Positions 4,569 through 56,795 of a stretch of 64,000 nucleotides of DNA are shown here, piece after piece. Origin of the DNA: Planctomycetota bacterium (GTDB lineage Bacteria; Planctomycetota; UBA8742; UBA2392). The notes under the pieces were generated by a model, which worked only from the letters and a program-made list of their open reading frames with translations, did no database searches and had not been told where the DNA came from. The number at the start of each line of letters is the position of its first letter. Positions within the stretch are counted from its first letter, which is position 1. Location of the stretch: the NCBI GenBank assembly GCA_020849795.1, contig JADZFR010000007.1:16184-80183 (forward strand), written 5' to 3'. The position numbers and the translations under genes are program-made.

Positions 4569-6272
4569 TCAGGCGCTTGCGCCGACCGGCTGCTGCCTGG
4601 CCTGCTTGAGCTGGTCGTTCACGACCTTGGCGGCTTCCTTGAACGTGGCTGCGATTTCGTCGGTGAGTTCTTTCTTCACCCGCAGCGCTTCCATTTGCGG
4701 GGCCTTGTTCGTGTTCAGGTACTCGGTGTAAGCCGCCTCGAACTTCTTGACGTCTTCAATGGCCACTTCGTCCAGCATGCCGTTGGTCGCGGCCCAGATC
4801 GTTGCCACCTGGTTCTCGACCGGTACTGGCTGGTAGATGCCCTGCTTCAGCACTTCGACCAGGCGCTGGCCGCGTGCAAGCTGCTGCTGGGTGGCCTTGT
4901 CGAGGTCGCTGCCGAACTGGGCAAACGCTTCCAACTCACGGAACTGGGCAAGGTCGAGGCGCAAGCGGCCGGCAACCTTCTTCATCGCCTTGATTTGCGC
5001 GTTGCCGCCGACTCGCGACACCGAGATGCCCACGTCGATGGCCGGGCGCACGTTGGCGTAAAAGAACTCGGGCGTCAGGTAGATCTGCCCGTCAGTAATG
5101 CTGATCACGTTGGTCGGGATGTATGCCGACACGTCGCCGGCCTGCGTTTCGATCACGGGCAGCGCGGTCATGCTGCCGCCGGTCTGCGGGTGCATGCGCA
5201 ACTCATGGCCATCGCCTGCGGCCTTCAGGGCGTGCTCGGCTTCTTCCCACTCTTCGGGCGTGCGGTTTCCGTAGCGTTTGCCGTCGATGCCGCTGGTGGT
5301 GTCCCAGGGCGCGTCCTTCTTCACGACGATGAACTCTTCCTTCAGCTTGGCGGCGCGTTCCAGCAGGCGGCTGTGACAGTAGAAAATGTCGCCGGGGAAC
5401 GCCTCGCGGCCCGGCGGGCGACGCAGCAACAGCGACATCTGGCGGTAAGCAACGGCTTGCTTGGACAAGTCGTCGTAGATGCACAGGGTGTCGCGAATCT
5501 TCTGCGGCTTGTCGTCGGCGTACATGAAGTACTCGGCGAGTGCCGCGCCGGCGTAGGGTGCCAGGTATTGCAGCGGCGCCGGGTCCTGCGCGTTGGCCGA
5601 CACGACAATCGTGTAGTCCATCGCGTTGTACTTCTCCAGCGTGGCAACCACCTGGCGCACGGTGCTGGCCTTCTGGCCGATGGCGACGTACACACAGATT
5701 ACGCCCTTGCCCTTCTGGTTGATGATGGTGTCTACGGCAACGGCGGTCTTGCCCACTTCGCGGTCACCAATGATCAGCTCGCGCTGGCCGCGTCCGACCG
5801 GGATCATCGCGTCGATCGCCTTGATGCCCGTCTGCAGCGGCACCTTCACGGGCTGCCGGGACTCAATGCCGGGTGCCTTGAATTCAATCAGGCGCTGCGA
5901 TGCAGCCTCAATCGGCCCCTTGCCGTCGATCGGCTGGCCCAGCGGGTTCACGACGCGGCCCAGGAAGCCCTGGCCGCAGGGTACGCTCAGGATCTTGCCG
6001 GTGCGCTTGACCTGCTGGCCCTCGCCGATCGTCAAGAAGTCGCCCATGATCACGATGCCGACCGAGTCTTCCTCGAGGTTGAACGCCAGACCGAATGCGC
6101 CGTTCTCGAACTGGACCATCTCGTTGGCCTGCACGTTCTCAAGGCCGTAAGCGCGGCAAATGCCGTCACCGACCTCAAGCACGGTGCCGACTTCTTCCAT
6201 GCCGATTTCTTCGCCGAAAGCCTCAATCTGCTTGCGGATGACTGACGTGATTTCGTCTGAGCGCAGTTCCAT
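4569..6272 (-). CDS. atpA: F0F1 ATP synthase subunit alpha
   Basis: Full-length alpha: GDRQTGKT-like P-loop ([15 protein letters not shown]), conserved [30 protein letters not shown]. Carries a ~45-aa insertion relative to E. coli. Confidence 0.95.
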
Positions 6273-23891: not shown

Positions 23892-24563
23892 ATGAAGTTT
23901 GATGCCCGTGTCATGGGCGTTCCGAACCACCTCGCGAACGCCCGAAAGTACCTTTCCAAGGCGGATTTCGCACTGGAACAGGCCAAAATCAAAGCCGCCG
24001 AAAACCGGCTGCTGGAAAAACTGCCCGACCAGAAGCGGGCGATTTCTGACATGTTCAAGCGCAAACTCGACTGCATCACGCACTTCCGCTGTGAGCGCTT
24101 CAACTTTCTTGAGCCACTGCAACAGTTCGCCACCTTCATCGATGGAACATCGCCCGAAGAGGTGATACAGGAAAACGCCTGGACCGGCGCGCTGCACATC
24201 GTGCTGATGGGCCAGAACGATTGCATGGTCGTGCCGTTCGACTTCAGTGTGCCGTTCGAAACCCGCGTCGAGGGCCGCACGCACCCCTACGTGCTGTGTT
24301 CAAGCCAGCGCATGAAAAAAGAACTCGACATGCTCGACGAGTACGTGGCCGTTGAGCACACGATGGGCATCCGCCAGTTCGACGCGTTCGTCGATCTGCG
24401 CCGCCAGGACATGGAAAAGTTCGAAAGAAGCGAAGGCGTCGGTCGCCGCTTCTGGGCCAAGTGGGGCGTCATGGCCCTGCGCGGCATGGTCGAGCGCAGT
24501 GTGCGGGCCGCTGTGCCCATCTTCGTCGATCCCCAGTTCGGCGAAGTCCCCGCAACCGTCTAG
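23892..24563 (+). CDS. Hypothetical protein
   Basis: 223-aa ORF divergent from rplM with coding-like composition; no recognisable motifs. Confidence 0.5.
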   Translation: MKFDARVMGVPNHLANARKYLSKADFALEQAKIKAAENRLLEKLPDQKRAISDMFKRKLDCITHFRCERFNFLEPLQQFATFIDGTSPEEVIQENAWTGALHIVLMGQNDCMVVPFDFSVPFETRVEGRTHPYVLCSSQRMKKELDMLDEYVAVEHTMGIRQFDAFVDLRRQDMEKFERSEGVGRRFWAKWGVMALRGMVERSVRAAVPIFVDPQFGEVPATV

Positions 24564-26238: not shown

Positions 26239-26670
26239 CTATCGCTTCGCGCCCACGAACTGGATGCGCACTTCGCCTACCTTCGCCCCCTTCATGGGTT
26301 TGCCGGTGGCGGGGTCGATCGGCTTGAGCTGCTTGAGCAGCTCCGGGTCTACCTGCACATCATAGATGCGGCCGCTTTCGGTGCAGACAAAGTGCTGGTG
26401 AGGCTCCAGCGTCGCGTCAAAACGGCGCAGCCCGTCACTGCTGGTCAGCGACGTGATCACGCCGGCTTCGGCCAGCTTGTCGAGGTTCTGGTAAACGGTC
26501 GCGCGGCCAATGTGGTGCCCGGCCGCTTCAAGCCGCACAGCCAGCTCGTCGGCAGAAGGATGGTCGCGCACTTCTTCCAGCGACGCAAGAATGGCAACGC
26601 GTGCCGTGGTCGGCCGCAAGCCGGCCCTCGCGATTTTGTCAGCTACGATTGTGTGGGGCCTGTGCGCCAT
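26239..26670 (-). CDS. Fur family transcriptional regulator
   Basis: Winged-helix N-domain (TTARVAILASL) plus His-rich metal-site residues (HH, HQH). Start at the internal ATG; only one Cys. Confidence 0.8.
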   Translation of the reverse strand: MAHRPHTIVADKIARAGLRPTTARVAILASLEEVRDHPSADELAVRLEAAGHHIGRATVYQNLDKLAEAGVITSLTSSDGLRRFDATLEPHQHFVCTESGRIYDVQVDPELLKQLKPIDPATGKPMKGAKVGEVRIQFVGAKR

Positions 26671-26862
26671 CGTCGTTCGAACCGTTAACGCCCTGCAATC
26701 TACTTGTATGCCGGAGGACCCGCCATATGTGGAAATGGCCAGCCTGATCGGCGCCACCAAAACCGGCGCTACAATTGCCCTCTGTCGCGCTGATTCCTAA
26801 CGTATCAGGGCTGGGTCGCCTTGGCGGATGGCTTTGTCCGCCGTTGGATACTGGAGAAGATT

Positions 26863-27882
26863 ATGAGACTGCTGCTGTTACCTGCCCTGTTGCTGGCCTG
26901 CGTGCCGCTTGCCGCTCAGGAAGTGAAAGTCGGCGATGACGTTGCCGAGTTCAGCCCGCGCAACTGGATCAACCCGCCCGCGTTCGCCTCGTTTGAAGAG
27001 CTGCGCGGCGACGTCATCATGATCAAGGCCTGGGGCAAGAACTGAGGCCCCTGCATCCGGCAGTTGCCGGCAATGAACGAGTACCACGAAAAAGCGGGCC
27101 TGCACGTCGTGACCCTCTATGCGCAGACACACAAGCTTGAAGAAATCGAAGAGCTGGTCAACAAGCACGAAATCAAATACCCCATCGCCATGGACGCCTT
27201 CTGGGACGCCGGCTACCACGCGCCGGGCTTACCCAAGATGTGGATCATCGGCGCCGACGGCAAAGTCAAGTTTGCCGGCATGAGCGGCTATTCCAAAGTG
27301 CTTGAAGAAGAGCTGGCCAAGGTGAAGTATCCCGGGCTGGCCAAGGACAAAGTCCACTCAGCCCTTGAACCCGCCGCCAAGCTGTTTGTCGAGGGCAAGT
27401 ACGCCGAAGCCCACAAAGCCGCCGAGGCCCTGTACGATGAAACCGATGACGAAACAGTCGAAGAAGACGCCTCGTACATCATGAAGCGCATTGAGGCGCG
27501 TATGAGTGCATTGGCGGTCCGTGCTGAGACTGCCGAGGCGATGAAGGACTACGCGCTGGCCATGAAGTGCTGGGAACAACTTGCAGCCTACAAGGGGCTC
27601 GACGATGCCGAAGAAGCGCCCGCGCGCCTGAAGAAGCTGCAAGGCAGCGAAGATGTGAAGAAAGAGCTTGCCGCCAAACGCGCTCTGCTGGCCGAGATGC
27701 TGCTGCTTGACCTCGGATATGCCGAGATCGACGCCAGTGACGCGGACCAGCTGAAGAAGTTCCGCGAGAAGTGCCTCGAGACCTACAAGAAGTTCGCCGC
27801 AGACAACAAGGGCACCGGCGCCGCCGAGCGGGCCAACGAACTGATCGGCATTTTCAAAGAGCTGCTCGGCATCAAGGACTGA
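26863..27882 (+). CDS. Candidate selenoprotein: secreted TlpA/thioredoxin-like thiol:disulfide oxidoreductase (UGPC motif) with C-terminal acidic helical domain; in-frame TGA at 27043-27045
   Basis: ORFs 26821..27045 and 27064..27882 share one frame, separated only by the TGA. Translation through the TGA reads VIMIKAWGKN-U-GPCIRQLPAMNEYHEK, matching the TlpA active site (VVLVNFWASWCGPC...). The paralog has TGT at this position. GGAG Shine-Dalgarno sits 7 nt before ATG 26863. Alternative reading: nonsense pseudogene. Confidence 0.55.
27057..27070 (+). promoter_or_regulatory. Candidate bacterial SECIS hairpin
   Basis: CCGGC-AGUU-GCCGG hairpin starting 11 nt downstream of the in-frame UGA, with a G/U-containing apical loop. 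Geometry resembles E. coli fdhF SECIS. Confidence 0.4.
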
Positions 27883-27976
27883 CGCGAGTGCACCAGGACA
27901 ACCCGGCGGATTGCGCCGGGTTGTTTCATTGTGGGCCCACGCAATCTACTGTGGGGCGGGCCACACGGAGATTGCC

Positions 27977-29035
27977 ATGACACGACTGCTGCTGATTGCG
28001 TTGCTATGCGCGCCGTTGTGCGCGCAGGTCAAAGTCGGCGATGACGCACCGGACTTTTCGCCGCGCAACTGGATCAACCCGCCGACCTTCAACTCCTTCG
28101 ACGAGCTTGCCGGCGACGTCATTCTCCTGAAAGCCTGGGGCATCAACTGTACCGGCAGCATGAGCCAACTGGACGCTACCAACAAGCTCGCGGAAACCCC
28201 GGGCCTGCATGTCGTCACGTTCTACGCCCAGACCCACAAGCTTGAGCAGATTGAAGCCGTCGTGAAATCCAACAACATCAAGTACCCGATCGCCCTGGAC
28301 GAGACGCCATGGCTGGCCGGATACGATGCACCCGACCTGCCCAAGGTCTGGATCATCGGCACCGACGGCATCGTCAAGTTCGCGGGCACCGACACCTACG
28401 ACGAAGCACTCAAGGCTGAACTTGCGAAGGTCAAGTACCCGGGCCTGGGCAAGCACAGTATCGCAAAAGGCCTTGAGCCTGCCGCCAAACTGTTCGTCGC
28501 CGGCAAGTTCAAAGAAGCCTACGACCTCGCCGAGAAGATGTTTGACGAGACTGACGACGAAGCCGAAGAAAACGACGCCGACTGGATCATGAAGCGCATC
28601 GACGGGCGCATGAACACGCTCAGCGTGCGCGCCGCCACCTCGGAAGTGCTGAAGGAGTACACGCTGGCCATGCGCTGCTGGGAAGAGCTTGCGCGATACA
28701 AGGGGCTGGACGACGCCGAAGAGGCGCCCGGGAGACTGAAGAAGCTGCAGGAAAGCGCTGACGTCAAGAAGGAGGTTGCGGCGCGCCGTAGCCTGCTGAT
28801 GCTGATGTGCGACCTGGACGTTGAGTTTCAGGTTTTGGACGACAGTGAACCCGCGACCGTAAAGGCCTTCCGCGAGAAGTGTCTCAAGGCCTACCAGGAG
28901 TTCGCCTCAGCCAACAAAGGCACAGGCGCCGCCGACCGCGCCGATGAGCTGGTCAAGGCGTTCAAGCAGTTGTTGGGAATCCCCGACGAGCCCGCAAAGG
29001 ACCCTGTCAAACAAGAGCCGCCCAAAAAAGACTGA
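27977..29035 (+). CDS. TlpA/thioredoxin-like secreted protein, Cys paralog (CTGS motif), with C-terminal acidic helical domain
   Basis: ~55-60% identical to the upstream gene over the full length. Signal peptide present. WGINCTGS where the upstream gene has WGKN-U-GPC. GGAG 7 nt before the ATG. Confidence 0.75.
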   Translation: MTRLLLIALLCAPLCAQVKVGDDAPDFSPRNWINPPTFNSFDELAGDVILLKAWGINCTGSMSQLDATNKLAETPGLHVVTFYAQTHKLEQIEAVVKSNNIKYPIALDETPWLAGYDAPDLPKVWIIGTDGIVKFAGTDTYDEALKAELAKVKYPGLGKHSIAKGLEPAAKLFVAGKFKEAYDLAEKMFDETDDEAEENDADWIMKRIDGRMNTLSVRAATSEVLKEYTLAMRCWEELARYKGLDDAEEAPGRLKKLQESADVKKEVAARRSLLMLMCDLDVEFQVLDDSEPATVKAFREKCLKAYQEFASANKGTGAADRADELVKAFKQLLGIPDEPAKDPVKQEPPKKD

Positions 29036-29210: not shown

Positions 29211-30584
29211 ATGCTCTGGACACGTTTACTGTTTGCCGGCGTTGCCGCTGTCAGCATCGGCAGCCTTGACACGCTGGCCCAAGAAACTCCCGCGCCTGCC
29301 ACCGAGAAGAAGACCGAGGCTGCACCCGCCAACATCGACGTGAACAAGCCGGCTGTCGGAAAGTTCACGGTCGTCAAGAAGACCGATCTCAAACTGACCG
29401 ATGAAGCCCGCAAGCGCGACGTTGTGCTGGCGGCGTGCTTTCCGAAAGAAGAGGGCAGCTACCCGGTCATCCTGTACAGCGTAGGCCAGGGCGCCGTCGC
29501 CAACGACTCGCTGGCGACGCCCGAGTTTCTGGCCAGCCACGGCTACGTTGTGTTTGTGCCGACCCACCCGCAGCCCGCACGCGGCGGCGCTGCAGCACCG
29601 AACCCCGACCAGATGTTTGAGCAGTACGACACCAACAAAGACGGCAAACTTTCGAAAGAAGAGCTGCCCGAGCAACTGCGGGACTTCTTTGACACCGTGG
29701 ACACCGACAGCGACGGCTTTATCAGCAAAGACGAGCTGCGCGCAGCAATCGGCGGCGCAGCCCCCGCGCCGGCGCCCGAGCAGCCGAAGAAAGACGAGCC
29801 CAAGAAGGATGACAAAGAAAAAGAAGACGAATTCGACCGCGCGCCGGACTCGCCCGAGATGCACCTGACCGAAGACCCGGCGCAGCCCGCGCCCGAGCAG
29901 CCTCGCGGTCGCCAGGGCCGACAGGGCCGCGGCCAGCGCGGCAACGACCCCACCAGCATCATCGACCGCAGCAAAGACCTGCTGCTGGTGACCGACCAGA
30001 TGACCAAGCTTGTGGAAGCGACGCCGGAGCTCAAGGGCAAAGCCAACCTGGAACAGATTGCCGTCGTCGGCCACGGGGCCGGTGCAGCCACGGCAGTCAT
30101 CCTGGGCGGCGCCACCATTGACGTCGGCGAGGAAAAGGGCAAGTCGTTCGCAGACAAGCGCATCAAGGCCGTCGTGCAGTTCGGCCCGGCGCAGAGCGGC
30201 CGCAATGGCTTCAGCGCGGATTCGTGGAAGGGCCTGACCACGCCCATGCTTGCCGTCAGCGGCGCCACACAGATGAACTTCGGCCGCGGCACCCCGGACC
30301 CTGAGGCGCGCAAAGAGTCATTCAAAGGCGCACCCGAAGGCAACAAGTACTTCGTAAGCATTGAGGGCGCATCCGACTTCGACCTGCCGGGCGCACCGGC
30401 CATGCGCATGGGCCGCGGCGGCCAGGCACCAGCCAAGAACGAAGCCGCCGGCAACTGGACGAACAGCGTGACCCTTCAGTTCTTGAACAGCACGCTCAAA
30501 GCCGACGAATCCGCCAAGACCTGGCTCGCCGGCGACGCGCTGGACAAGGGCTCCGAGGGCAAGGCCAAGATCGAACGCAAGTAA
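29211..30584 (+). CDS. Secreted alpha/beta-hydrolase-fold protein (PAF-acetylhydrolase/chlorophyllase-like) with inserted EF-hand pair; nucleophile elbow degenerate (GHGAG)
   Basis: Signal peptide. Two canonical EF-hand loops, DTNKDGKLSKEE and DTDSDGFISKDE. Hydrolase-like segments flank them, but G-H-G-A-G replaces G-x-S-x-G. Confidence 0.65.
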   Translation: MLWTRLLFAGVAAVSIGSLDTLAQETPAPATEKKTEAAPANIDVNKPAVGKFTVVKKTDLKLTDEARKRDVVLAACFPKEEGSYPVILYSVGQGAVANDSLATPEFLASHGYVVFVPTHPQPARGGAAAPNPDQMFEQYDTNKDGKLSKEELPEQLRDFFDTVDTDSDGFISKDELRAAIGGAAPAPAPEQPKKDEPKKDDKEKEDEFDRAPDSPEMHLTEDPAQPAPEQPRGRQGRQGRGQRGNDPTSIIDRSKDLLLVTDQMTKLVEATPELKGKANLEQIAVVGHGAGAATAVILGGATIDVGEEKGKSFADKRIKAVVQFGPAQSGRNGFSADSWKGLTTPMLAVSGATQMNFGRGTPDPEARKESFKGAPEGNKYFVSIEGASDFDLPGAPAMRMGRGGQAPAKNEAAGNWTNSVTLQFLNSTLKADESAKTWLAGDALDKGSEGKAKIERK

Positions 30585-30718: not shown

Positions 30719-32215
30719 CTACTCGAGATTCTCGTACATGGCGCCCAGCATGTCGCAGTACAGGATCCCGCGGTCTTTGTCCTCTTTGGCCAGCAGGCTG
30801 CTCTGGTGCAGGCCCTCAAGCACGAACTCCATCGCCGCTGCGAGCTCGGGCCCCTTGACATCCTTCATGTATTGACGCGTCAATGCCTCAAGCTCGGGCA
30901 CGGCCTGCAGTGCTTTCGCGTACTCTTTGTCGGGCATCTCGTCCGTCAGTTCCAGCCGCTTGCCCTTGGCAAACCAGTCGATCACCGGCTTGTACGGGCC
31001 GTCATCGCGCTGGGGCACCGCCTCGCGGCCCTGCTTCCGGCCCGTGCGCTGGCGCGTGGCGTACACGCCGGGGAACGCGGCCTCAAACACCCCGCGCAGC
31101 GCCGCACCGATAATGCCGGTCGCAACCTTGTGCGCGCCTTCCTGTTCGCCTTCGTAGACCAGTTCCAGCTTGCCCGACATGGCCGGGATCGCCGCCGACA
31201 GGTCCACCACCCGCAGCCACGTGCTATCTTGACCGGTCAACAGGCAGCGCCGTTCGGCGTTGCTTAGCACACTTTCCAGCGCGGCAATGTTCATGCGCGC
31301 GCTGACACCGCTGGCCTGGTCGACAAACTCTGATTTGCGCGCGGCAAACCCGATCTGCTCAATGGCTTCGCGAAGAAACGCAGGCACGTGCACCTTGGGC
31401 GCCTTCGGGCGCTCGGTCCAGGCCTCTTGATCCGTGATCGCGCGGCTGTCTTCCACCGAGTTGGGATAGTGCGTGATCACCTGCGACTCGATGCGGTCTT
31501 TCAGCGGAGTGATAATGCTGCCGCGGTTGGTGTAGTCCTCCGGGTTGGCCGAAAAGCACAGCATCAGGTCCAGCGGAATGCGCACCGGAAAGCCGCGAAT
31601 CTGGATGTCGGCTTCTTCAAGAATGTTCAACAGGCCCACCTGGATGCGCGGCTGCAGGTCCGGCAATTCATTGATGGCAAAGATGCCGCGGTTGGTGCGC
31701 GGGATGATGCCGAAGTGGATGACCTCTTCGTCGGCAAACGTGAGCTTTTGCGTGGCGGCCTTGATCGGGTCTACGTCGCCAATCAGGTCGGCGATGCTCA
31801 CGTCCGGCGTGGCAAGTTTCTCGGCATAGCGCGACTCTCGGTGCAGCCAGTCGATTTCGACCTCGTCGCCGTGGCGGGCCACCAGCGTTCGCGCGTACTT
31901 GGAAAGCGGCTTGTATGGGTCATCGTTGAGTTCACTGCCCTTGATCACGGGCATGTACTCGTCCAGCAGGTTGACCAGGCTGCGCAAGATGCGCGTCTTT
32001 GCCTGCCCGCGCAGCCCCAGCAGGATCAGGTTGTGGCGCGCAAGCACCGCATTGATCACCTGCGGAATGACGGTCTGGTCATAGCCGACGATGCCGGGGA
32101 ACAGCTTGCTCTTGTCGCCCAGTCGGGCCACCAGATTTTCGCGCAGTTCGTCTTTGACGCCGCGCGACTTCCAGCCCGAAGCCTTGAGCGCGCCTATCGT
32201 GGTTGGTCGTGCCAT
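30719..32215 (-). CDS. AAA+ ATPase, magnesium-chelatase ChlI/BchI-like family
   Basis: N-terminal region aligns to ChlI (GYDQTV...LLGLRGQAKT...ELNDDPY). Walker B-like FAINELPD. ~500 aa. Confidence 0.65.
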   Translation of the reverse strand: MARPTTIGALKASGWKSRGVKDELRENLVARLGDKSKLFPGIVGYDQTVIPQVINAVLARHNLILLGLRGQAKTRILRSLVNLLDEYMPVIKGSELNDDPYKPLSKYARTLVARHGDEVEIDWLHRESRYAEKLATPDVSIADLIGDVDPIKAATQKLTFADEEVIHFGIIPRTNRGIFAINELPDLQPRIQVGLLNILEEADIQIRGFPVRIPLDLMLCFSANPEDYTNRGSIITPLKDRIESQVITHYPNSVEDSRAITDQEAWTERPKAPKVHVPAFLREAIEQIGFAARKSEFVDQASGVSARMNIAALESVLSNAERRCLLTGQDSTWLRVVDLSAAIPAMSGKLELVYEGEQEGAHKVATGIIGAALRGVFEAAFPGVYATRQRTGRKQGREAVPQRDDGPYKPVIDWFAKGKRLELTDEMPDKEYAKALQAVPELEALTRQYMKDVKGPELAAAMEFVLEGLHQSSLLAKEDKDRGILYCDMLGAMYENLE

Positions 32216-32263
32216 GGCGCGGATGCTACCAGCCAGCACCCGCATTGGGAAACCCGCGGACGG

Positions 32264-33220
32264 CTAGGCCTTGAACTTCAGCAGCCATTCAAGGTCGGCC
32301 TCGTCCACGCTTTCCCATTCGCCGCTGACCAGACGCCAGTTGTGCCCGTGCCGCACCAGCAGCTTGTGAACCGTGATCTCGCGACGGTCGATGTGCGCCT
32401 TGTTGAGCTTTGCGATCAGCCACGCCACAGCGGCACCCAACGCAGCCGCCGAGACGACGACGCCCCAGAACGGCGCCCCCAGCTCGCGCAGGCGCTCGGA
32501 CCCGACAATGAAAGGCACAGCCACAACCAGCACACCCGCCGCCAGCGCCCCATAGAATGCAAGCTTGCGCCGCACCGCAATGCGCAACGTCACGCGAGCA
32601 AGCGCCACATCGGCCATCGGGCTTTCCGCTTGCAGGTCGCGCACGCTTACAAGGTGTGTGACTGCCGGGTTGCCGCGCAACAGCGCGCGCCAATACCTTG
32701 CCAGCGTCTTGGCAGAGTCCAGTTTGGGCACGGCGGCTGCGGTCAACCAGTTGAACACCGGGCGCACCGGCGGGCCGGGATGATCGAACCCACGCACCAG
32801 CGCCCCAAGCCGCCGGCTGCGCGGCCGGCGCTGCGTTGCCGCAAGATAGAACTCGTGAATCGTCTTTTCGGGGCTATCTGGTGCACTGGCGGCCCAGCGC
32901 GTCATCACTCGCGATACGCCGATGTAGAAAGCCACTGCGGCGGCCACGCCTACCAGCGCCCAGGCGCCCGGGTCGATCCAGGCGCGCCAGTCGTTGAAGT
33001 CCCCCGGCCAGACAGGCTGGAACACGGCCAGCAAAGCCGCCGCGCCGAACGGAACCAGCAGCAGCGGGACGGTACCAAAGAGGATGCGGCTGTCGCGGCC
33101 GACGCGCTTTACGGACAGGTCGGGTGCCATCGCCGCATGCAGTCGCGCCTTGGCCTCGCGGTGCGGGTCAACGGCTGGCTTGCGAGGTGAGCGCTGCGGC
33201 GGATTCAGGATGAGCGTCAT
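32264..33220 (-). CDS. Hypothetical membrane protein
   Basis: Several TM helices, no recognised motifs. Start uncertain. Confidence 0.5.
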   Translation of the reverse strand: MTLILNPPQRSPRKPAVDPHREAKARLHAAMAPDLSVKRVGRDSRILFGTVPLLLVPFGAAALLAVFQPVWPGDFNDWRAWIDPGAWALVGVAAAVAFYIGVSRVMTRWAASAPDSPEKTIHEFYLAATQRRPRSRRLGALVRGFDHPGPPVRPVFNWLTAAAVPKLDSAKTLARYWRALLRGNPAVTHLVSVRDLQAESPMADVALARVTLRIAVRRKLAFYGALAAGVLVVAVPFIVGSERLRELGAPFWGVVVSAAALGAAVAWLIAKLNKAHIDRREITVHKLLVRHGHNWRLVSGEWESVDEADLEWLLKFKA

Positions 33221-34030: not shown

Positions 34031-34546
34031 GTGAGGCTTTTCGTGTCCAAGCGCCTGCTGAAGTTCATTGTTAACGGCCGACAGGCCGAGGTTGCCGTTG
34101 AACCCCACCACACCTTGGCCAGCGTGCTGCGCAATGAGTTGAACCTGACCGGCACCAAAGTCGGATGCGACATGGGCACATGCGGGTGCTGCACAGTCCA
34201 CATCGACGGAAAAGCCAAGCTGAGCTGCCTGACGCTGGCTCTGGAGTGCCAGGGCGCGCAAATCCGCACCATCGAAGCCCTGAACGAGTACGAGATGCAC
34301 CCGCTGCAAAAGGCGTTTGCCGAGTGCGGCGGCAGCCAGTGCGGCTACTGCACGCCCGGCTTTATCATGAAGAGCTGCGAGTTGCTTGAACGCAACCCGG
34401 ACCCCACCCGCGAAGAGATCCAGGAAGCGCTGGCCGGCAACCTGTGCCGCTGCACCGGCTTCATGAAAATCTACGACGCGGTTGAGCAGGCAGCCGGCGA
34501 GCTGCGAAGGAAAGAAACACCAAAGCCTGCCCCGGCCAAAGTTTGA
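34031..34546 (+). CDS. Xanthine-dehydrogenase-family small subunit, 2x[2Fe-2S]
   Basis: Plant-type ferredoxin motif CDMGTCGCC plus second cluster motif CGYCTPG. The start may instead be the GTG at 34043. Confidence 0.85.
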
Positions 34547-34626
34547 CCACCGAACCGGCGGTTTCCAGCATAGCCGCAAAGACCTGCACACCGCGTTTCT
34601 GCGAGTGATTCTACACGAGGATAGAC

Positions 34627-37029
34627 ATGCCCACTGTCAGCGGATCCGGTGAGACCAAGAACGAACACCAGCTCAACAAGGGTGTGTGGTCTGACAACGG
34701 CGCGCCCGCAGCGGCCGAGTTCAGTGTGATCGGCAAGCGCGTTCCGCTCAAAGACGCCTACCGCAAAGTCACCGGCGAGGGCGTGTACGCTGACGACATG
34801 AAATTCCCGGGCATGCTGTACTCGCGCATTCTTCACGCTGAAAAAGCCCACGCAAAAATCAAGCGCATAGACACGTCGCGGGCCGAAGCACTGCCCGGCG
34901 TGCGTGCCGTCGTCACCGGCAACGACGCCGCCAACCGCTTCGGCGTGCTGCCCGTCAGCCAGGACGAGTTGTCGATGGCCCGCGAGAAGGTCATCTACAA
35001 CGGTGAGCCCGTCGCCGCCGTCGCTGCCGACACGGAAGAAATTGCCGCCGAAGCCATCTGGCTGATCGACGTCGAGTACGAACCGCTGGAAGAGTTCCTG
35101 AAGCCGCGAGATTCACTCAAGGACGTCTCGCCCGAGCTGCAGATTCACGACAAGGTCGAAAAGAAGCACCCCAATACCAACATCCACAAAGCGGTTGACC
35201 AGGAATTCGGCGACGTTGAAGGCGCATTCAAGACCGCCGAAGCCATCGTCAGCGCCGAATTCAAGTTCGACGGCATCAGCCACGGGTTCACTGAGCCGCA
35301 CGCCATTGTCGCGCATTGGGACGCCGACGACCGGCTGCAGCTCTACACGCCGCAGCAGGTCCCCCACTACACGCATCGCGCGCTGGCCAAGGTACTTGAG
35401 CTGCCGATGCATCGCATCCAGGTGATCCGCACCATGGTGGGCGGCGGTTTTGGCGGCAAGAGCGACCCGTTCCAGCACGAGATGATCGCCAGCCTGCTGA
35501 GCATGAAAACGCGGCGCCCGGTCAAGCTGACCATGGACCGCGAAGAAACGTTCCTGACGGGCCGCGGCCGCCACCCCACCGAGGGCAAGCTGGCCATGGC
35601 CTTCGACAAAGAGGGCAAGCTGACCGCGCTGGACAGCGACATCATCATCGATGGCGGCGCCTACGGCAGCTTTGGCGTGGTCAGCGCCTACTACAACGGA
35701 GTGCTAAGCAACGGGCCCTACTGGATGCCGGCTTTCCGCTACCACGGCAAGCGCGTGTACAGCAACCGCATCCCCAGTGGCGCGATGCGCGGCCACGGCA
35801 GCGTCAACCCGCGCTATTGCACAGAGACGTTGATCGACATGGCGGCTGTGAAGCTGGGGCTGGACCCATGCGAGATTCGCCTGCGCAACTTCCTGCCCAG
35901 CAACACGCTCACGCCCTACCACAAGTTCCGCATCACCAGCAACGGCATTCGCGAAGGCCTGGCCGAAGCCATGCGACGCAGCGAATGGAAAAAGAAGTGG
36001 GGCAAGCTGCCCTACGGGCACGGCATTGGCGTCGGCTGCGCGTGGTACATCAGCGGCAGCGCGCTTCCGATCCACTGGAACAAGCTGCCGCAAAGCACCG
36101 TGCACATCAAGATTGACATGGACGGCGGCGTGACTGTTCACAGCCTGGCCGCCGAAATCGGCCAGGGCAGCGACACCATGCTGGCCCAGTGCGTGGCAGA
36201 GGTGATCGGCTGCAACCTAGAGCGCGTGCACGTGAAGTCCACCACCACCGACACGGCGCCGATCGACCTGGGCAGCTACAGCTCGCGCGTGACTTTCATG
36301 GCCGGCAACGCCGCGCGCAAAGCCGCCGAGAACATTCGCGCACAACTGGCCGCCGCGGCAAGCAGGCTTACAGGGCAACCGGCACAGTACTTTGATTTCG
36401 CGGGTGAACAGGTGATCTGCCGCAGCAAACCCGACGTGCGCGTCACGTTCATGGAAGCACTGCACGAAGCCCAGGCCGACATCGGCGCGCTGATCGCCAG
36501 CGGCAGCTACCAGGCGCCGCCGCTGGGCACGACGTTCAAGGGCAGCAACGCGGGCCTGAGCCCCAGTTACAGTTTCAGCGCGTTCATCTGCGAGCTGAAG
36601 GTGGACCCCGAGACCGGCTTTGTACAGCCGCTGAAAATCTGGGCGGCGCACGATTGCGGCCGCGCGCTGAACCCTCTGGCCGTGGAAGGGCAGATAGAAG
36701 GCAGCGTGCACATGGGGCTGGGGCAAGCCCTGACCGAGCAATTGCGCTACCGCGGCGCGCAACTGCTGAACGGGAACTTTCTGGACTACAAGATTCCCAC
36801 GCCGTACGACACGCCTGAGATCGAAGCGATCATCGTCGAAAGCGCAGACCCCGAGGGCCCCTTCGGCGCCAAAGAGTGCGGCGAAGGCGCTCTGGCACCG
36901 ATTATTCCGGCGGTGGGCAACGCGATCTACGACGCGGTAGGCGTGCGCATGTTCGAAGTGCCGATGACCCCCGACCGAGTGCTCAAGGCCATCGAAGCCA
37001 AGAAACGCGCCGAGGCTAAAGGCGAGTAG
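34627..37029 (+). CDS. Xanthine-dehydrogenase-family molybdopterin-binding large subunit
   Basis: 800 aa with aldehyde oxidase/xanthine dehydrogenase a/b-hammerhead and MoCo-binding domains. Confidence 0.9.
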   Translation: MPTVSGSGETKNEHQLNKGVWSDNGAPAAAEFSVIGKRVPLKDAYRKVTGEGVYADDMKFPGMLYSRILHAEKAHAKIKRIDTSRAEALPGVRAVVTGNDAANRFGVLPVSQDELSMAREKVIYNGEPVAAVAADTEEIAAEAIWLIDVEYEPLEEFLKPRDSLKDVSPELQIHDKVEKKHPNTNIHKAVDQEFGDVEGAFKTAEAIVSAEFKFDGISHGFTEPHAIVAHWDADDRLQLYTPQQVPHYTHRALAKVLELPMHRIQVIRTMVGGGFGGKSDPFQHEMIASLLSMKTRRPVKLTMDREETFLTGRGRHPTEGKLAMAFDKEGKLTALDSDIIIDGGAYGSFGVVSAYYNGVLSNGPYWMPAFRYHGKRVYSNRIPSGAMRGHGSVNPRYCTETLIDMAAVKLGLDPCEIRLRNFLPSNTLTPYHKFRITSNGIREGLAEAMRRSEWKKKWGKLPYGHGIGVGCAWYISGSALPIHWNKLPQSTVHIKIDMDGGVTVHSLAAEIGQGSDTMLAQCVAEVIGCNLERVHVKSTTTDTAPIDLGSYSSRVTFMAGNAARKAAENIRAQLAAAASRLTGQPAQYFDFAGEQVICRSKPDVRVTFMEALHEAQADIGALIASGSYQAPPLGTTFKGSNAGLSPSYSFSAFICELKVDPETGFVQPLKIWAAHDCGRALNPLAVEGQIEGSVHMGLGQALTEQLRYRGAQLLNGNFLDYKIPTPYDTPEIEAIIVESADPEGPFGAKECGEGALAPIIPAVGNAIYDAVGVRMFEVPMTPDRVLKAIEAKKRAEAKGE

Positions 37030-37052
37030 CCGCGAAGTTCAAGGATTACACC

Positions 37053-38114
37053 ATGACGATGTTGCTACCGAAGTTCGAACTTCACCAACCCGCCACGCTT
37101 GATGAGGCCGTGGCGCTGGCGGCTTTGCATGTGGATGACTTTGACCTGCTTTCGGGCGGGACCGACCTGCTGCCGAACTACAAGTGCGGGCTCAATGCGC
37201 GCCACAACGTGATCAGTCTTGCCCACATTGCCGAACTCAAGCACATCGACGGGCATTCGATCGGCGCGGGCGTAACCCTGACTGAAATTGAGCGCAACAC
37301 CGATGTCCCGCGCAGCGTCGCCGATTGCGCCCGCCACATCGCGTCGCCTCTGCTGCGCGAGTCGGGCACGTTGGGCGGCAACCTGATGCTCGACAACCGC
37401 TGCCACTTTTTCAACCAAAGCTATTTCTGGCGCCGCTCGCTCGGCTACTGCCTCAAAGCCAACGGCGACCGCTGCCACGTCGTGCCGCAAATCAACGAAG
37501 GCGGCAAGAGCGTGCTGAACGACAAAGTCTGCGTCGCCACGCACTCCAGCGACCTGGCACCCATGCTGATCGCACTGGGCGCGGAAGCCACATTCATCAG
37601 CACAGCCGGCAAGCGCACGCTCAAACTGAATGACTTCTACTGGGGCGACGGCATTGAACGCTACGAGCGCAAGCCCGGCGAAATCCTGGTGCAGGTGACG
37701 CTGCCCAAGTGGGCGCACGAGGTTCGCAGCGGCTGGAAGAAGCTGGCCCCGCGTCAGAGCATTGACTTCAGTGTCGTGGGTGTCGGGGCGGCGCTGGAAC
37801 TCGACGGCAACAAAGTGAGGGCGCTGCGTGTGGCGCTTGGCGCGGTCGATACCACGCCGGTACTGTTTGATTTCTCGCGGCTGGAGAAGCGCAAAGATGC
37901 AGGACATTACCTGCTGATGGACCCGTACAAGAACATGCCCGAAGTGCTTGGCAAGACGCTCGACGACGCATTGATCGAGACGGTGGCCAAGCACGTGCAG
38001 ACGCAGGCCCAGCCAAAACTCAACGTGCCCATGGCCCCCGACTATCGCAGAAAGATGTGCGGCGTGCTGACGCGCCGCCTGCTGACCCAGTTGCGCGACG
38101 GCCCCGCGGAATAA
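37053..38114 (+). CDS. Xanthine-dehydrogenase-family FAD-binding medium subunit with Cys4 insertion (HcrB-like)
   Basis: FAD-binding domain (LLSGGTDLL, GTLGGNL). Insertion with Cys117/133/141/160 (C-x15-C-x7-C-x18-C). 353 aa versus ~290 typical. Confidence 0.85.
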   Translation: MTMLLPKFELHQPATLDEAVALAALHVDDFDLLSGGTDLLPNYKCGLNARHNVISLAHIAELKHIDGHSIGAGVTLTEIERNTDVPRSVADCARHIASPLLRESGTLGGNLMLDNRCHFFNQSYFWRRSLGYCLKANGDRCHVVPQINEGGKSVLNDKVCVATHSSDLAPMLIALGAEATFISTAGKRTLKLNDFYWGDGIERYERKPGEILVQVTLPKWAHEVRSGWKKLAPRQSIDFSVVGVGAALELDGNKVRALRVALGAVDTTPVLFDFSRLEKRKDAGHYLLMDPYKNMPEVLGKTLDDALIETVAKHVQTQAQPKLNVPMAPDYRRKMCGVLTRRLLTQLRDGPAE

Positions 38115-54055: not shown

Positions 54056-56795
54056 AAACAATCTCACGAACGTCGGAGCAACCAGCGCAGCCGCGCAATG
54101 TTTGGGTCAGGCGTGCTTTGGGTGCCCTCGGGGGAGGGGGCCCGGGCGCCGACTTGCGTGCCCCGGCTTCTCCCGCCTGACATCTAAACAAATTGGCAAG
54201 CTTCCGTTCACCAATTCGCGAAGCCGCACAGGCAAATCGGCCTCTTCTTTGCGTTGATGGAACCCCTTGTCGGGCGCGGCCCGCACGTCGGCTCTTTCGC
54301 CATCCAGCGAGCCAAGCGAAGGATCGGGCGGAGCAAGCCTGATCCCCTTTCTCAATTTGTCGGGGCCACACAATGCAAGCGTGTACTAGACTTCGATGCG
54401 CGATGTCTTCCAGATTTCCCCTACCAAGGCTATCAGCAGCCCGTGCCGAGCCTCAATGGCCTTTGCGTTCCAAGAGGGAAACGCTTGCAACTTCTCATTG
54501 ATTCGCATGATAGAGGTGTCCTTGCCGATGTTGGACAAACCGGCCAGACTGCGGGTCAAGTAGTTGCCGCTGTTGCAGTACTTGGCCCGCTTGGCCTCGT
54601 AGAAGTCGTTGCCCGCGACGATGTTGATGGGTTTCTCCAGCAAGGTCAGGTTGCCGAGCCGGTTCTTGTAGTCGTCGTACCCAGCATCTGGATTCTCGGC
54701 AACCCACTTGCCGCGCAGTTCCTCTTTTGGTTTGTCCGGCAGAATGTGTTCGATCTCTAGCTTGGTGAACGGTTCCAAACTACCCAGCGTCTTTTGGCCG
54801 CTGAAAGCCATCTCGACGTGCTGCGTCAGCCGCGCCAGAAAGTAGCGCGTCCGGTACTGCTGCATCGAGTAAAGAGTGAAGCGTCGGAGCGCATCGACCA
54901 GTTCCTGCGACTTTTTGGACATGTTCGTCTCGAAGCGCTCAGAGATGAACTCATTGATCTGCACCTTCTGCTTCACGGGGTCGGTAACTGCGGCAATTGC
55001 ACGCAGCTCGTCCGCCCATTGGGAAAAGCTCCGCTCCAGATCCTTGGTCGGCGTCTTGGTAAAGATGTAGTAGAAAAGAAAGCTCTCCAACTGCGTCACA
55101 AAGTGGTCGAACAGAGGCTTTGGGAAGCTAGCCGCAGCCATGAGCAGGACGTAGTGCAAACTGAAGGCTCCGCCCGCCAGCCGCTTCAAGCTGTCCATCG
55201 CAAGGCTTGGCTTGCCGTCGTTGCCAAGCCCATTCGAGAACGCGAGATAGTGTTCTACGCTTCGGTGAATCTTTCGAACAAACTCGAACGGCTTGCCTGC
55301 GAAACCGCACAGCGCCGCGTTCTCCTTGTCCACGAACCAGTCGTAGATTTCGTCCTCGCGCACCACGGCATCACCCCGCTCGTTCTTGATAACGTAGTTC
55401 GCCATCAGGAAATAGCGCAGAAAGCGCAGCGGCTTCTCTTTCTCTGTTTCCAGCGGCTTGGTGATATTCTTCCACTCGTCCTTGAGCCGCGTGAACTGAC
55501 CCTGCTTCACCTGTTTGAACAGTAGATTCTTAAGTAAGTCCATCGGATTCAGGCCGACACCGCGCTCATTAATGGTCTCAAAAATCTTCAGGGCGCTGCT
55601 CACGTCCGTGGAGATCTGAATGAACACCACGTAGTTCGCCAAGTAACCCCAATACTTCTTCAGCTTGGGTGTGTCCTGGTAGTTGTCCTTCAGGTAGCCG
55701 TGGAGGGTGCTATAGGCGTTCACCAGATTTTCCAGCGACCCGAAACTGGTGATACCCGCCGATTGAATGCCAGCCCGCACGGCTTGAGGGTCGGCGTCGA
55801 GTTCGACTAGCTTGGCGATGACCTCGCCCGCATTCTCGTAGCGAGGTTCTAGCTTCAAGCTGCATCGCGTTTCCCCGTCGCTATCGGTATAAGTAGTCGA
55901 AATTAGGCCGCTGACTGTTTGACGCTGTGGCTCGTGCTGAAACAGATGTTTGAGGGCGCAGAGTAGCAGGAAGAACGTAGTAAGGCGCTGCTGACCATCG
56001 ATCACGTCGTAGTGACCTTTTTGGTCGGTCGGCGACACCAGCACGGTGCCAATGAAGTATTCCCGAGGCGCGCCCGCATTGATCTGCTCGTCGATGTCAT
56101 CGAGCAACTGATGCACTTCCTTATCTGTCCAGACGTACTCGCGTTGGTAATCCGGCACGATGTAGAAGCACTCCCTGAAAGCTTCCTCAATGCTGTATTT
56201 GTGGTTTTCGATACGTGCCATGGTATTGTCCTACTGCGAAGTCTAGATTTCACTAGTACGACCGCGTTTGAAATCGGCGTTACTGCCGTCCCGGAGATGC
56301 TTCTAGCGCTTCACGCACGAGAACTAAAGAGGCACCAAGGAGAGTGGTCAATGGGGCTGTTCAACCGGGCAGGTGGGTGACAGTTTAGGCCGGCCCTAAC
56401 GATCGAATTTGGGTGGCTCCTGCTGAGATGCTGTAATCCGTGCGAGCGGACGTGCCAACGTATTCTAAGAGCCTCTAGATCGAACCGTTGCTGCGACTTC
56501 CGACTTCGCATGACCTGTGTCGATCGGGTCGGAGTGCGGCCCATCGGCCACTGTTGCAGCCGGGCGTCCGCCGGGTGGGATGCGTGACGCCATGAGCCGA
56601 GGCACGTAATTCGGCATCGCTGGGTCGCGAGCGACCACGGCGCATAAGCTAAGGCCAGCGCCCCAAGTTTACCCCTGAGCGCCCAAGGAAAACCCCTTCC
56701 TGTTAGAAGCAACCACGGATGGTGTCGCTCCGGTCTTGCCAATGGCTTGGGGCTGGGCACCATGCCATTGCCGCCGCGCTGGTCTCTGAAGAGAG
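54056..56795. other. Lower-GC islet (~55% vs ~67%) carrying a single defence gene; likely horizontally acquired
   Basis: Visible compositional shift. Contains a 330-bp and a ~570-bp non-coding flank on either side of the GmrSD gene. Confidence 0.6.
54386..56221 (-). CDS. GmrSD-family type IV (modification-dependent) restriction endonuclease, DUF262 + DUF1524
   Basis: N-terminal DUF262 with DGQQR motif (YDVIDGQQRLTT). C-terminal DUF1524 His-Me finger (EIEHILP...NLTLLEKPINI). 611 aa. Confidence 0.8.
   Translation of the reverse strand: MARIENHKYSIEEAFRECFYIVPDYQREYVWTDKEVHQLLDDIDEQINAGAPREYFIGTVLVSPTDQKGHYDVIDGQQRLTTFFLLLCALKHLFQHEPQRQTVSGLISTTYTDSDGETRCSLKLEPRYENAGEVIAKLVELDADPQAVRAGIQSAGITSFGSLENLVNAYSTLHGYLKDNYQDTPKLKKYWGYLANYVVFIQISTDVSSALKIFETINERGVGLNPMDLLKNLLFKQVKQGQFTRLKDEWKNITKPLETEKEKPLRFLRYFLMANYVIKNERGDAVVREDEIYDWFVDKENAALCGFAGKPFEFVRKIHRSVEHYLAFSNGLGNDGKPSLAMDSLKRLAGGAFSLHYVLLMAAASFPKPLFDHFVTQLESFLFYYIFTKTPTKDLERSFSQWADELRAIAAVTDPVKQKVQINEFISERFETNMSKKSQELVDALRRFTLYSMQQYRTRYFLARLTQHVEMAFSGQKTLGSLEPFTKLEIEHILPDKPKEELRGKWVAENPDAGYDDYKNRLGNLTLLEKPINIVAGNDFYEAKRAKYCNSGNYLTRSLAGLSNIGKDTSIMRINEKLQAFPSWNAKAIEARHGLLIALVGEIWKTSRIEV

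Follow-up and report, generated by a model that had tools for sequence, protein, structure and literature searches.

The locus described here raises the question of whether a stop codon in the middle of a conserved gene is in fact a selenocysteine (Sec) codon and, if so, what the resulting protein, its tandem paralogue and a divergently transcribed regulator do together. It lies in a 64,000-nt stretch of DNA, called the window throughout (GC content 62.7%; contig JADZFR010000007.1, positions 16,184 to 80,183 of the forward strand; assembly GCA_020849795.1), from an uncultured planctomycete (GTDB lineage Planctomycetota; UBA8742; UBA2392). Three genes span positions 26239-29035: a Fur-family gene on the minus strand and, divergent from it on the plus strand, gene A followed by gene B. 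A first-pass annotation, made by a model from the letters alone, placed all three where they are found here and proposed that they form a metal- or peroxide-regulated extracytoplasmic redox module. The reading preferred in this work, with a probability of roughly 0.6, is that gene A encodes an exported Sec-dependent oxidoreductase of the TlpA/ResA type, that gene B encodes a degenerate partner and that the Fur-like regulator may control gene A. Of its elements, Sec decoding, the folds, the history of the paralogues, selection and synteny are taken as shown, and export, the reductase chemistry, the part played by B and any control by Fur are inferred. Comparative data come from a family scan at one genome per species that returned 56 loci, the true family members being L001-L036; these are metagenome-assembled genomes (MAGs) of Planctomycetota throughout, and within the collections searched the family is confined to uncultured members of this phylum.

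Gene A (26863-27882, plus strand) reads in a single frame of 339 codons whose sole internal stop is a TGA at 27043-27045, in the motif WGKN-U-GPC; the first-pass annotation had already taken this codon for a putative Sec. About 33 gene copies, drawn from about 30 loci in Planctomycetota MAGs, have a TGA at this very column of the alignment (the tblastn alignments pass through it), and it is kept at identities down to 28-38%, in the motifs UGPC, UPPC, UIPC and UVPC. Ordinary TlpA-like proteins have the first Cys of WCGPC at this column, and Cys-form members also exist within the family, with CGPC (L034), CVPC (P0007) and, in the more distant P0055, P0071, P0080, P0083 and P0084, CGPC or CPPC. 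Against orthologues, the ratio of nonsynonymous to synonymous substitution (dN/dS) is 0.02-0.10 over the 60 codons 5' of the UGA and 0.05-0.21 over gene A overall, and both gene A and gene B are under purifying selection (0.05-0.26). TGA is the ordinary stop of 16 of the 49 other genes of the window, which indicates that the codon is not reassigned in the source organism, and the UGA of gene A is the only in-frame TGA of the window with coding sequence on both flanks.

Downstream of the UGA a bacterial Sec insertion sequence (SECIS)-type hairpin was recognized by comparative pairing at 27056-27071 (plus strand). The window stem CCGGC/GCCGG (27057-27061 and 27066-27070) encloses an AGUU loop (27062-27065) that is invariant and begins 16 nt past the UGA, and the UGA would be decoded through this hairpin from inside the coding sequence. 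In an alignment of 28 sequences, 95.5% of the cells are paired, compared with 23-73% in controls slid along the alignment, and three of the six pairs show compensatory changes (21 cells), a level reached by none of 500 shuffles. The stem varies among CCGGC/GCCGG, GCGGC/GCCGC, GACGC/GCGUC and GGGGC/GCCCC, and this variation also alters the encoded residues (R-Q-L-P versus T-Q-L-R); in non-Sec paralogues only one to four of the six pairs remain. Comparative analysis alone is informative for this element: single-sequence folding of the 68 nt after the UGA is no better than that of shuffled sequences (z = -0.04), and Rfam at gathering thresholds reports a tRNA-Asn only and no match for the hairpin.

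The conserved UGA, the covarying hairpin and the Cys that relatives have opposite the UGA together argue that gene A is a genuine selenoprotein gene, as far as sequence comparison can establish it, and they bear out the first annotator's suspicion. An objection would be that the TGA really terminates translation or marks a pseudogene, the two flanking open reading frames (ORFs) being the real products. Public gene callers do make exactly this split, dividing gene A into a 60-aa ORF (26863-27045) and a 269-aa 'hypothetical protein' (27073-27882), and likewise in L057-L059; the C-terminal ORF matches, at 100% identity, a protein from a 'Planctomycetes bacterium' MAG (locus tag IT464_03100). Among the database homologues, however, about half are 260-300-aa records that start just past the motif, at MRQLPHMNE or MNEYHEK, which is the signature of gene callers halting at a Sec codon. 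A stop or a lesion would also have to be reconciled with retention of the same TGA in about 33 copies across deep divergence, with selection on both of its flanks, with a hairpin kept through compensatory changes and with Cys at the same column in relatives, and on these comparisons this explanation is effectively refuted.

What kind of protein gene A encodes is indicated by its architecture, in which a putative signal peptide (about residues 1-18) precedes a TlpA/ResA-like domain with the U61-G-P-C64 site, and the C-terminal domain, from about residue 162 to residue 339, is helical. The two-part architecture that the first reading had given to both paralogues, a leader followed by a TlpA-like fold and an acidic Ala-, Glu- and Lys-rich helical domain, is recovered by inspection, by AlphaFold and by Pfam. 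Gene A exceeds the Pfam cut-offs for AhpC-TSA (35.2 bits) and Redoxin (26.7 bits), so that the expected assignment holds for this protein; gene B falls just short of both (25.7 and 25.4 bits, respectively). The nearest NCBIfam model for the N-terminal domain is ResA, well under its cut-off. The AlphaFold model of the gene B protein (predicted local distance difference test, pLDDT, 91.6) retrieved ResA, DipZ-C and CcmG with Foldseek at probability 1.0 and a template modelling (TM) score of about 0.7 on the target, and TlpA-like proteins and Etrx also at probability 1.0; the family profile matches ResA of B. anthracis (4nmu) by sequence. The proline of the cis-Pro loop is invariant in 38 of 38 aligned members, whereas the redox pair C/U-x-x-C is present in A (UGPC) and missing from B (CTGS) and from the B clade. 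By inspection, both leaders have the form M-R/T-(L)n...PLAAQ or PLCAQ, short and basic and then hydrophobic, with a small residue at -1, and the leader of the B model has low pLDDT; A and B are probably exported to the cell envelope.

In the proposed mechanism Sec61 would replace the attacking Cys of a thiol-disulfide reductase and Cys64 would resolve the resulting selenenylsulfide. It could be argued instead that A is an exported selenoperoxidase, whose Sec is oxidized by peroxide to a selenenic acid that Cys64 resolves and a partner recycles, an activity that would fit a PerR-type neighbour. Glutathione-peroxidase-type sites in the thioredoxin-fold suprafamily have the form U-G-x-T, and A shares with them a Sec at the first motif position (U-G-x-C); AhpC-TSA is its top-scoring Pfam match, and the regulator described below has a PerR-like ligand set. 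The structural and sequence neighbours at the top of the searches are nevertheless all reductases (ResA, TlpA, CcmG and DipZ), with no peroxiredoxin or glutathione peroxidase among them, the proline-bearing CxxC-type motif is a reductase signature and the linkage to fur is weak. A peroxidase function is therefore considered unlikely, and a TlpA/ResA-type reductase remains the preferred assignment.

The C-terminal domain of about 180 aa is all-helical in the AlphaFold models (pLDDT 92-94), with eight helices (pLDDT 94), and is acidic (isoelectric point 4.9), with an abundance of Ala, Glu and Lys. It matches no Pfam family, and in the PDB it finds only weak tetratricopeptide repeat (TPR)-like similarities, to BamD and YbgF (best E 0.07). 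It is also rare: its profile retrieved only 46 clusters among 1.84 billion representatives, and most of these are truncated calls in which the domain starts from about residue 100, which points to Sec forms. The only curated model that touches it is NF041382, whose positions 190-348 align with this domain of A (E 8e-8) and of B (E 1.6e-10), at scores of 32 and 41 bits where the cut-off is 350. NF041054 (WAxxUGC) gives 26 bits against a cut-off of 300, and the VPGUxxT and WAxxUGC motifs are both absent from A and B. No curated family model reaches its cut-off, and A and B represent a small, un-modelled selenoprotein family whose architecture is common to a described one. Fused to the catalytic domain, this rare and weakly TPR-like domain probably binds a substrate or a partner protein. 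The domain also contains a Cys pair (residues 236 and 304 of A, 234 and 302 of B, in the contexts ...CWE... and ...REKCL...) that is found in most A- and B-type members and is absent from the NAEC type described below; these residues could form a disulfide of structural importance or act as a further redox site.

Gene B (27977-29035, plus strand) starts 94 nt past gene A and encodes a 352-aa paralogue of the same architecture with the motif WGINCTGS, in which C58-T-G-S61 is encoded at 28148-28159. The two proteins are 63% identical over 340 aa (E 2e-152), slightly more than the 55-60% first estimated over about the same length, a resemblance far beyond chance. Both genes start with GGAG-N6-ATG rather than with the N7 spacing originally reported, and the N6 spacing recurs in L001-L003. 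In a neighbour-joining tree the Sec forms are spread throughout the family, and two non-Sec clades are nested within the clade that contains the window. One is the B clade, with the motifs CTGS, CTTS, CKDS, DKDS and NVPS; the other, the C clade, has SDAA and NAEC, and a C-type copy (P0016) is present elsewhere in the source MAG. The gene order is A-B in the window and in L001-L003 and C-B-A in L008. The tree thus places B in a derived non-Sec clade within Sec forms, and B is most simply read as an old paralogue that descends from a Sec-containing ancestor, in which Sec was replaced by Cys and the resolving Cys by Ser. The absence of the resolving Cys had been noticed in the first-pass annotation, and the CTGS motif agrees with it; the monothiol enzyme that was proposed on this basis is more aptly seen as a stage within a clade that is degenerating, some members of which are Cys-less in the motif.

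The possibility must be considered that B is a selenium-sparing Cys backup of A for times when selenium is scarce. Cys paralogues often adjoin selenoprotein genes in bacterial selenoproteomes, B of the window and of L001-L003 has a Cys at the Sec position, and B shares the architecture of A, its tandem placement and purifying selection (dN/dS 0.07-0.26). However, every CxxS member has Ser at the site of the resolving Cys, the DKDS and NVPS members of the B clade have a Cys-less motif in intact genes, and Cys forms of the wider family retain CGPC, CVPC or CPPC. Progressive loss of redox residues in a clade that remains intact and under selection argues against a selenium-free backup, which is judged improbable. 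The B protein keeps its fold, its cis-proline loop and its helical domain under purifying selection, and it is most likely a non-catalytic or single-thiol partner or adaptor, in a role that would rely on the fold and the helical domain.

Several other members of the family were observed in the searched genomes. A second Sec subfamily, with the motif WGC(T/G/D)-U-PPC, is found in L020-L031 (for example L021:6001-6978, with the TGA at 6145), has its own compensating SECIS stem (GACGC/GCGUC or GGCGC/GCGCC) and co-occurs with the UGPC type in the same genomes (L005/L020, L006/L021 and L009/L026). DUF4416 lies just upstream of the UPPC-type genes, in L021 together with MarR and DinB, and these and the other neighbours of this type gave no functional lead. 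In L019 (4866-9060) four copies are clustered, of which two are arranged head-to-tail and the other two are on the opposite strand; the UGA (UGPC) is present in three, and one is degenerate (SRPA). A much bolder proposal, to which little probability is assigned, is that the paralogue set constitutes a new type of dedicated envelope redox system, made up of a Sec enzyme, its CxxS or Cys-less twin, a third type (NAEC/SDAA) encoded elsewhere in the genome and, in other genomes, the UPPC Sec type, in which the helical domain would pair the selenoenzyme with dead twins that deliver or hold its substrate, in this lineage under a PerR-like switch devoid of the zinc site. If true, this would amount to an exported selenium-based machine for repair or peroxide defence with built-in pseudo-enzymes.

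The third gene of the locus (26239-26670, minus strand) encodes a Fur-family regulator of 143 aa, counted from the ATG at 26670 (Pfam FUR, 79.6 bits against a gathering cut-off of 23.1, E 2.7e-22). In the list of ORFs it reaches back to a TTG at 26760, and the conserved protein begins at or after the ATG at 26670; public calls of the gene are 126 aa long and probably lose the first helix. Its best solved relative is PerR of B. subtilis (2fe3, E 4.5e-13, ungapped over residues 11-107), and the window protein and five orthologues have H37, D85, H91, H93 and D104, the regulatory-metal ligands in the standard B. subtilis PerR numbering. The family assignment, the single Cys and the divergent orientation given in the first-pass annotation agree with Pfam and with the residue count: there is exactly one Cys (Cys96), position 99 is Ser and no CxxC pair is present, so that of the four Cys of the structural zinc (Cys4) site only Cys96 is left and the site is absent. 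A further match at E 1.1e-9 is 5nl9, the PerR of Leptospira interrogans, which is not known to have the Cys4 structural site either. A metagenome scan with the Fur protein found only three relatives at 40% identity. The regulator is an atypical Fur-family member: its regulatory metal site is PerR-like and the structural zinc site is missing, and peroxide or metal sensing is a reasonable guess from these two features; it probably adds a second lineage of Fur/PerR-like proteins of this kind.

Whether this regulator controls gene A depends first on the region that separates them. In the window fur and gene A share a 190-bp control region, and this sharing may put A and B under peroxide or metal control; in this lineage A, and B by read-through, would perhaps respond together. 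Upstream of A, a promoter-like block (26771-26819, plus strand; TTGCCC, 17 nt, TAACGT and then the conserved ATCAGGGCTGGGTCG) is the only one conserved in the window and in L001, L002 and L003, even with a different upstream gene; a simple sigma-70 scan did not flag it. A 5'-leader inverted repeat, GGCGGA-N8-TCCGCC (26823-26842, plus strand), lies immediately 5' of the ribosome-binding site of gene A; it is found in the window and in L002, is imperfect in L001 and is absent in L003. Between A and B, a perfect 11-bp hairpin followed by UUUCAUU (27898-27924, plus strand), resembling a terminator or an RNA stabilizer, is kept in L001, L002 and L003 with varying loop sequences, and a simple terminator scan did not flag it either. 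The conserved hairpin with its U-rich tail suggests that A and B are possibly not strictly co-transcribed. In the closest relative the A-B spacer (L001:7085-7245) is 150 nt longer than that of the window and holds two copies of a highly self-complementary repeat of about 60 nt (GGGGUCUGGCUCCG...GGUGCCUGACCCC), resembling a repetitive extragenic palindrome or a miniature inverted-repeat transposable element, which is absent from the window.

The second line of evidence is the conservation of the arrangement across genomes. The fur gene lies within 6 kb of a redoxin gene in 5 of about 16 informative close-clade loci and in none of about 17 distant family loci. It is directly divergent from a redoxin gene in the window, in L003 (where the control region is 124 nt) and in L011; in L001 and L002 it is 1.7 kb off, behind a 518-aa gene of the GNAT/nitrilase superfamily, in L005 it is 4.4 kb away, and in the other informative loci of the close clade, about 11 in number, it was not found within 6 kb. 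The intervening gene of L001 was at one point taken for an apolipoprotein N-acyltransferase, an assignment that was rejected when NCBIfam placed it in the nitrilase/amidase superfamily. This nitrilase-family gene precedes fur in L005, L063, L064, L070 and L072 and, in L001 and L002, fur follows it on the same strand after 20 nt; L006, L009 and L018 have the nitrilase-family gene and the Sec gene and no fur. A survey from the side of the regulator (orthologues in 20 clusters, ten contexts examined) gave as its constant neighbours the same-strand upstream nitrilase-family gene and the block formed by rplM-rpsI and the gene at 23892 (23892-24563, plus strand). The latter encodes a 223-aa protein with no Pfam or NCBIfam match and 70-99% identity and lies beside rplM-rpsI and fur in at least seven loci. 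The divergent partner of fur, on the other hand, varies: it may be A, an NVPS-type family member as in L011 (so in L068 and L069), a TonB-dependent receptor accompanied by TonB in L065, a porin in L067 or an extracytoplasmic function (ECF) sigma factor in L071.

The Sec gene has steady neighbours of its own. The one most consistently kept is a gene for an EF-hand/alpha-beta-hydrolase-like secreted protein (29211-30584, plus strand; Pfam EF-hand, PAF-AH_p_II and Chlorophyllase), which lies directly 3' of the redoxin gene or genes in L001-L003, L005-L007, L009, L010, L012, L014, L017 and L018; in L016 it is close by, on the other strand. The second is a convergent AAA ATPase gene. This ATPase gene (30719-32245, minus strand; 508 aa, weak AAA_5 and Mg-chelatase matches, identity between loci 71-97%) and a gene of 318 aa that matched no family (32264-33220, minus strand) converge on the redoxin and EF-hand genes and form the most conserved part of the neighbourhood. 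The tight pairing of fur and A in the window results from the loss of an intervening gene within a conserved backbone, and the link between the two is lineage-specific and loosely conserved, which falls short of the three-gene module originally envisaged.

Alternatively, fur may be a mere syntenic neighbour, regulating itself or other genes such as iron-uptake or nitrilase-family genes and brought beside A by gene loss, with no regulated module at all; the chances of this are put only a little below even. The nitrilase-superfamily gene found between fur and A in two loci and ahead of fur in five others, the three loci that have this gene and the Sec gene and no fur, the TonB-dependent receptor opposite fur and the persistence of the promoter-like block in L001 and L002 although fur is not adjacent there are all in its favour. 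A regulatory link is suggested, on the contrary, by the shortness of the whole L003 divergent region and by the fact that fur and a redoxin-family gene are divergent in two unrelated contexts (the window and L003; L011, L068 and L069), the second of which is hard to credit to chance because the redoxin family is so small.

A number of observations weigh against the combined reading of an exported Sec reductase, a degenerate partner and a possible Fur-type control. In the 64-kb window, of which about 45 ORFs were scanned, neither a CcdA/DsbD electron donor nor a tRNA-Sec, selA, selB or selD gene was found. No convincing Fur or PerR operator was detected in the fur-A region by a search for inverted and direct repeats, by footprinting against L001-L003 or by k-mers and palindromes shared with L011 and L005, and the NCBIfam PerR, Irr and Fur equivalogs are all under cut-off for the regulator (PerR models 54-56 bits against 180-200; IrrA, nominally the best, 63.9 against 150). 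Most genomes have no fur near the Sec gene, a TonB-dependent receptor as its partner would suit an iron regulator, and the conserved A-B hairpin may terminate transcription and so uncouple B from the promoter of A. The metal- or peroxide-regulated extracytoplasmic redox module of the first annotation is a plausible reading that has weak support.

Some other features of the window were also recorded. A three-gene cluster for a molybdoenzyme of the xanthine/CO-dehydrogenase type (34031-38114, plus strand), with 2Fe-2S, molybdopterin-binding and FAD-binding subunits, lies downstream of the locus, and several relatives show synteny between its large subunit and the redoxin locus. A 567-aa subunit of the ATP synthase alpha/beta family (4569-6272, minus strand) has its nucleotide-binding domain matched in two stretches, and some 110 residues follow the first of these before the C-terminal domain begins, which suggests an insertion. 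A GmrSD-type restriction endonuclease gene with both N- and C-terminal domains (54386-56221, minus strand) has a GC content at third codon positions of 0.74, lower than its neighbours, and may be part of a small defence or mobile island.

The findings matter first for annotation, since a real selenoprotein is recorded as two 'hypothetical' ORFs in every public record examined. They also matter for the evolution of selenoenzymes, as the family offers a natural series from UGPC through CxxS to Cys-less forms that can be used to study the decay of a selenoenzyme into pseudo-enzymes and the benefit of Sec in an exported reductase.

Compared with known systems, the regulator resembles PerR of B. 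subtilis (2fe3) in that the five regulatory ligands align without gaps; identity is low, and peroxide sensing would be conjectural. For the fusion of a redox domain to a helical one, E. coli CnoX/YbbN combines a thioredoxin fold with a TPR protein-binding domain, and for the B-type site ERp44 is a thioredoxin-fold protein with a single Cys, CxxS and SxxC sites forming only mixed disulfides. These two are analogies; they show no detectable homology to the helical domain of A and B, act in other cellular compartments and contain no selenium. ResA, TlpA, CcmG and the C-terminal domain of DipZ are the best matches of the N-terminal domain and share its CxxC-type site and conserved proline loop; they differ in having Cys instead of Sec, in being without a helical C-terminal domain and in being fed by CcdA or DsbD, the donors missing from the 64-kb window. 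The VPGUxxT thioredoxin-like (seleno)protein, type 1 (NF041382), is alike in its length of about 350 aa and its two-part architecture, whereas the motif of A is WG-x-N-U-G-P-C and its score is far under the cut-off of that model. Sec use is documented in some Planctomycetes (PMC4807772), and Sec-containing TlpA-like or 'thiol-disulfide isomerase-like' selenoproteins (cd02966, UxxC) have been catalogued among the predicted prokaryotic selenoproteins (PMC13188914). As a category these proteins are already established, their SECIS elements included, and the current understanding of them is not overturned by this locus. Like the cd02966 proteins, A has a thioredoxin fold, in its case probably exported, in which Sec stands where CxxC has its first Cys, and its gene has a SECIS hairpin soon after the UGA; the A/B family differs from them by its additional helical C-terminal domain of about 180 aa and by the presence of several paralogues per genome, degenerate ones included.

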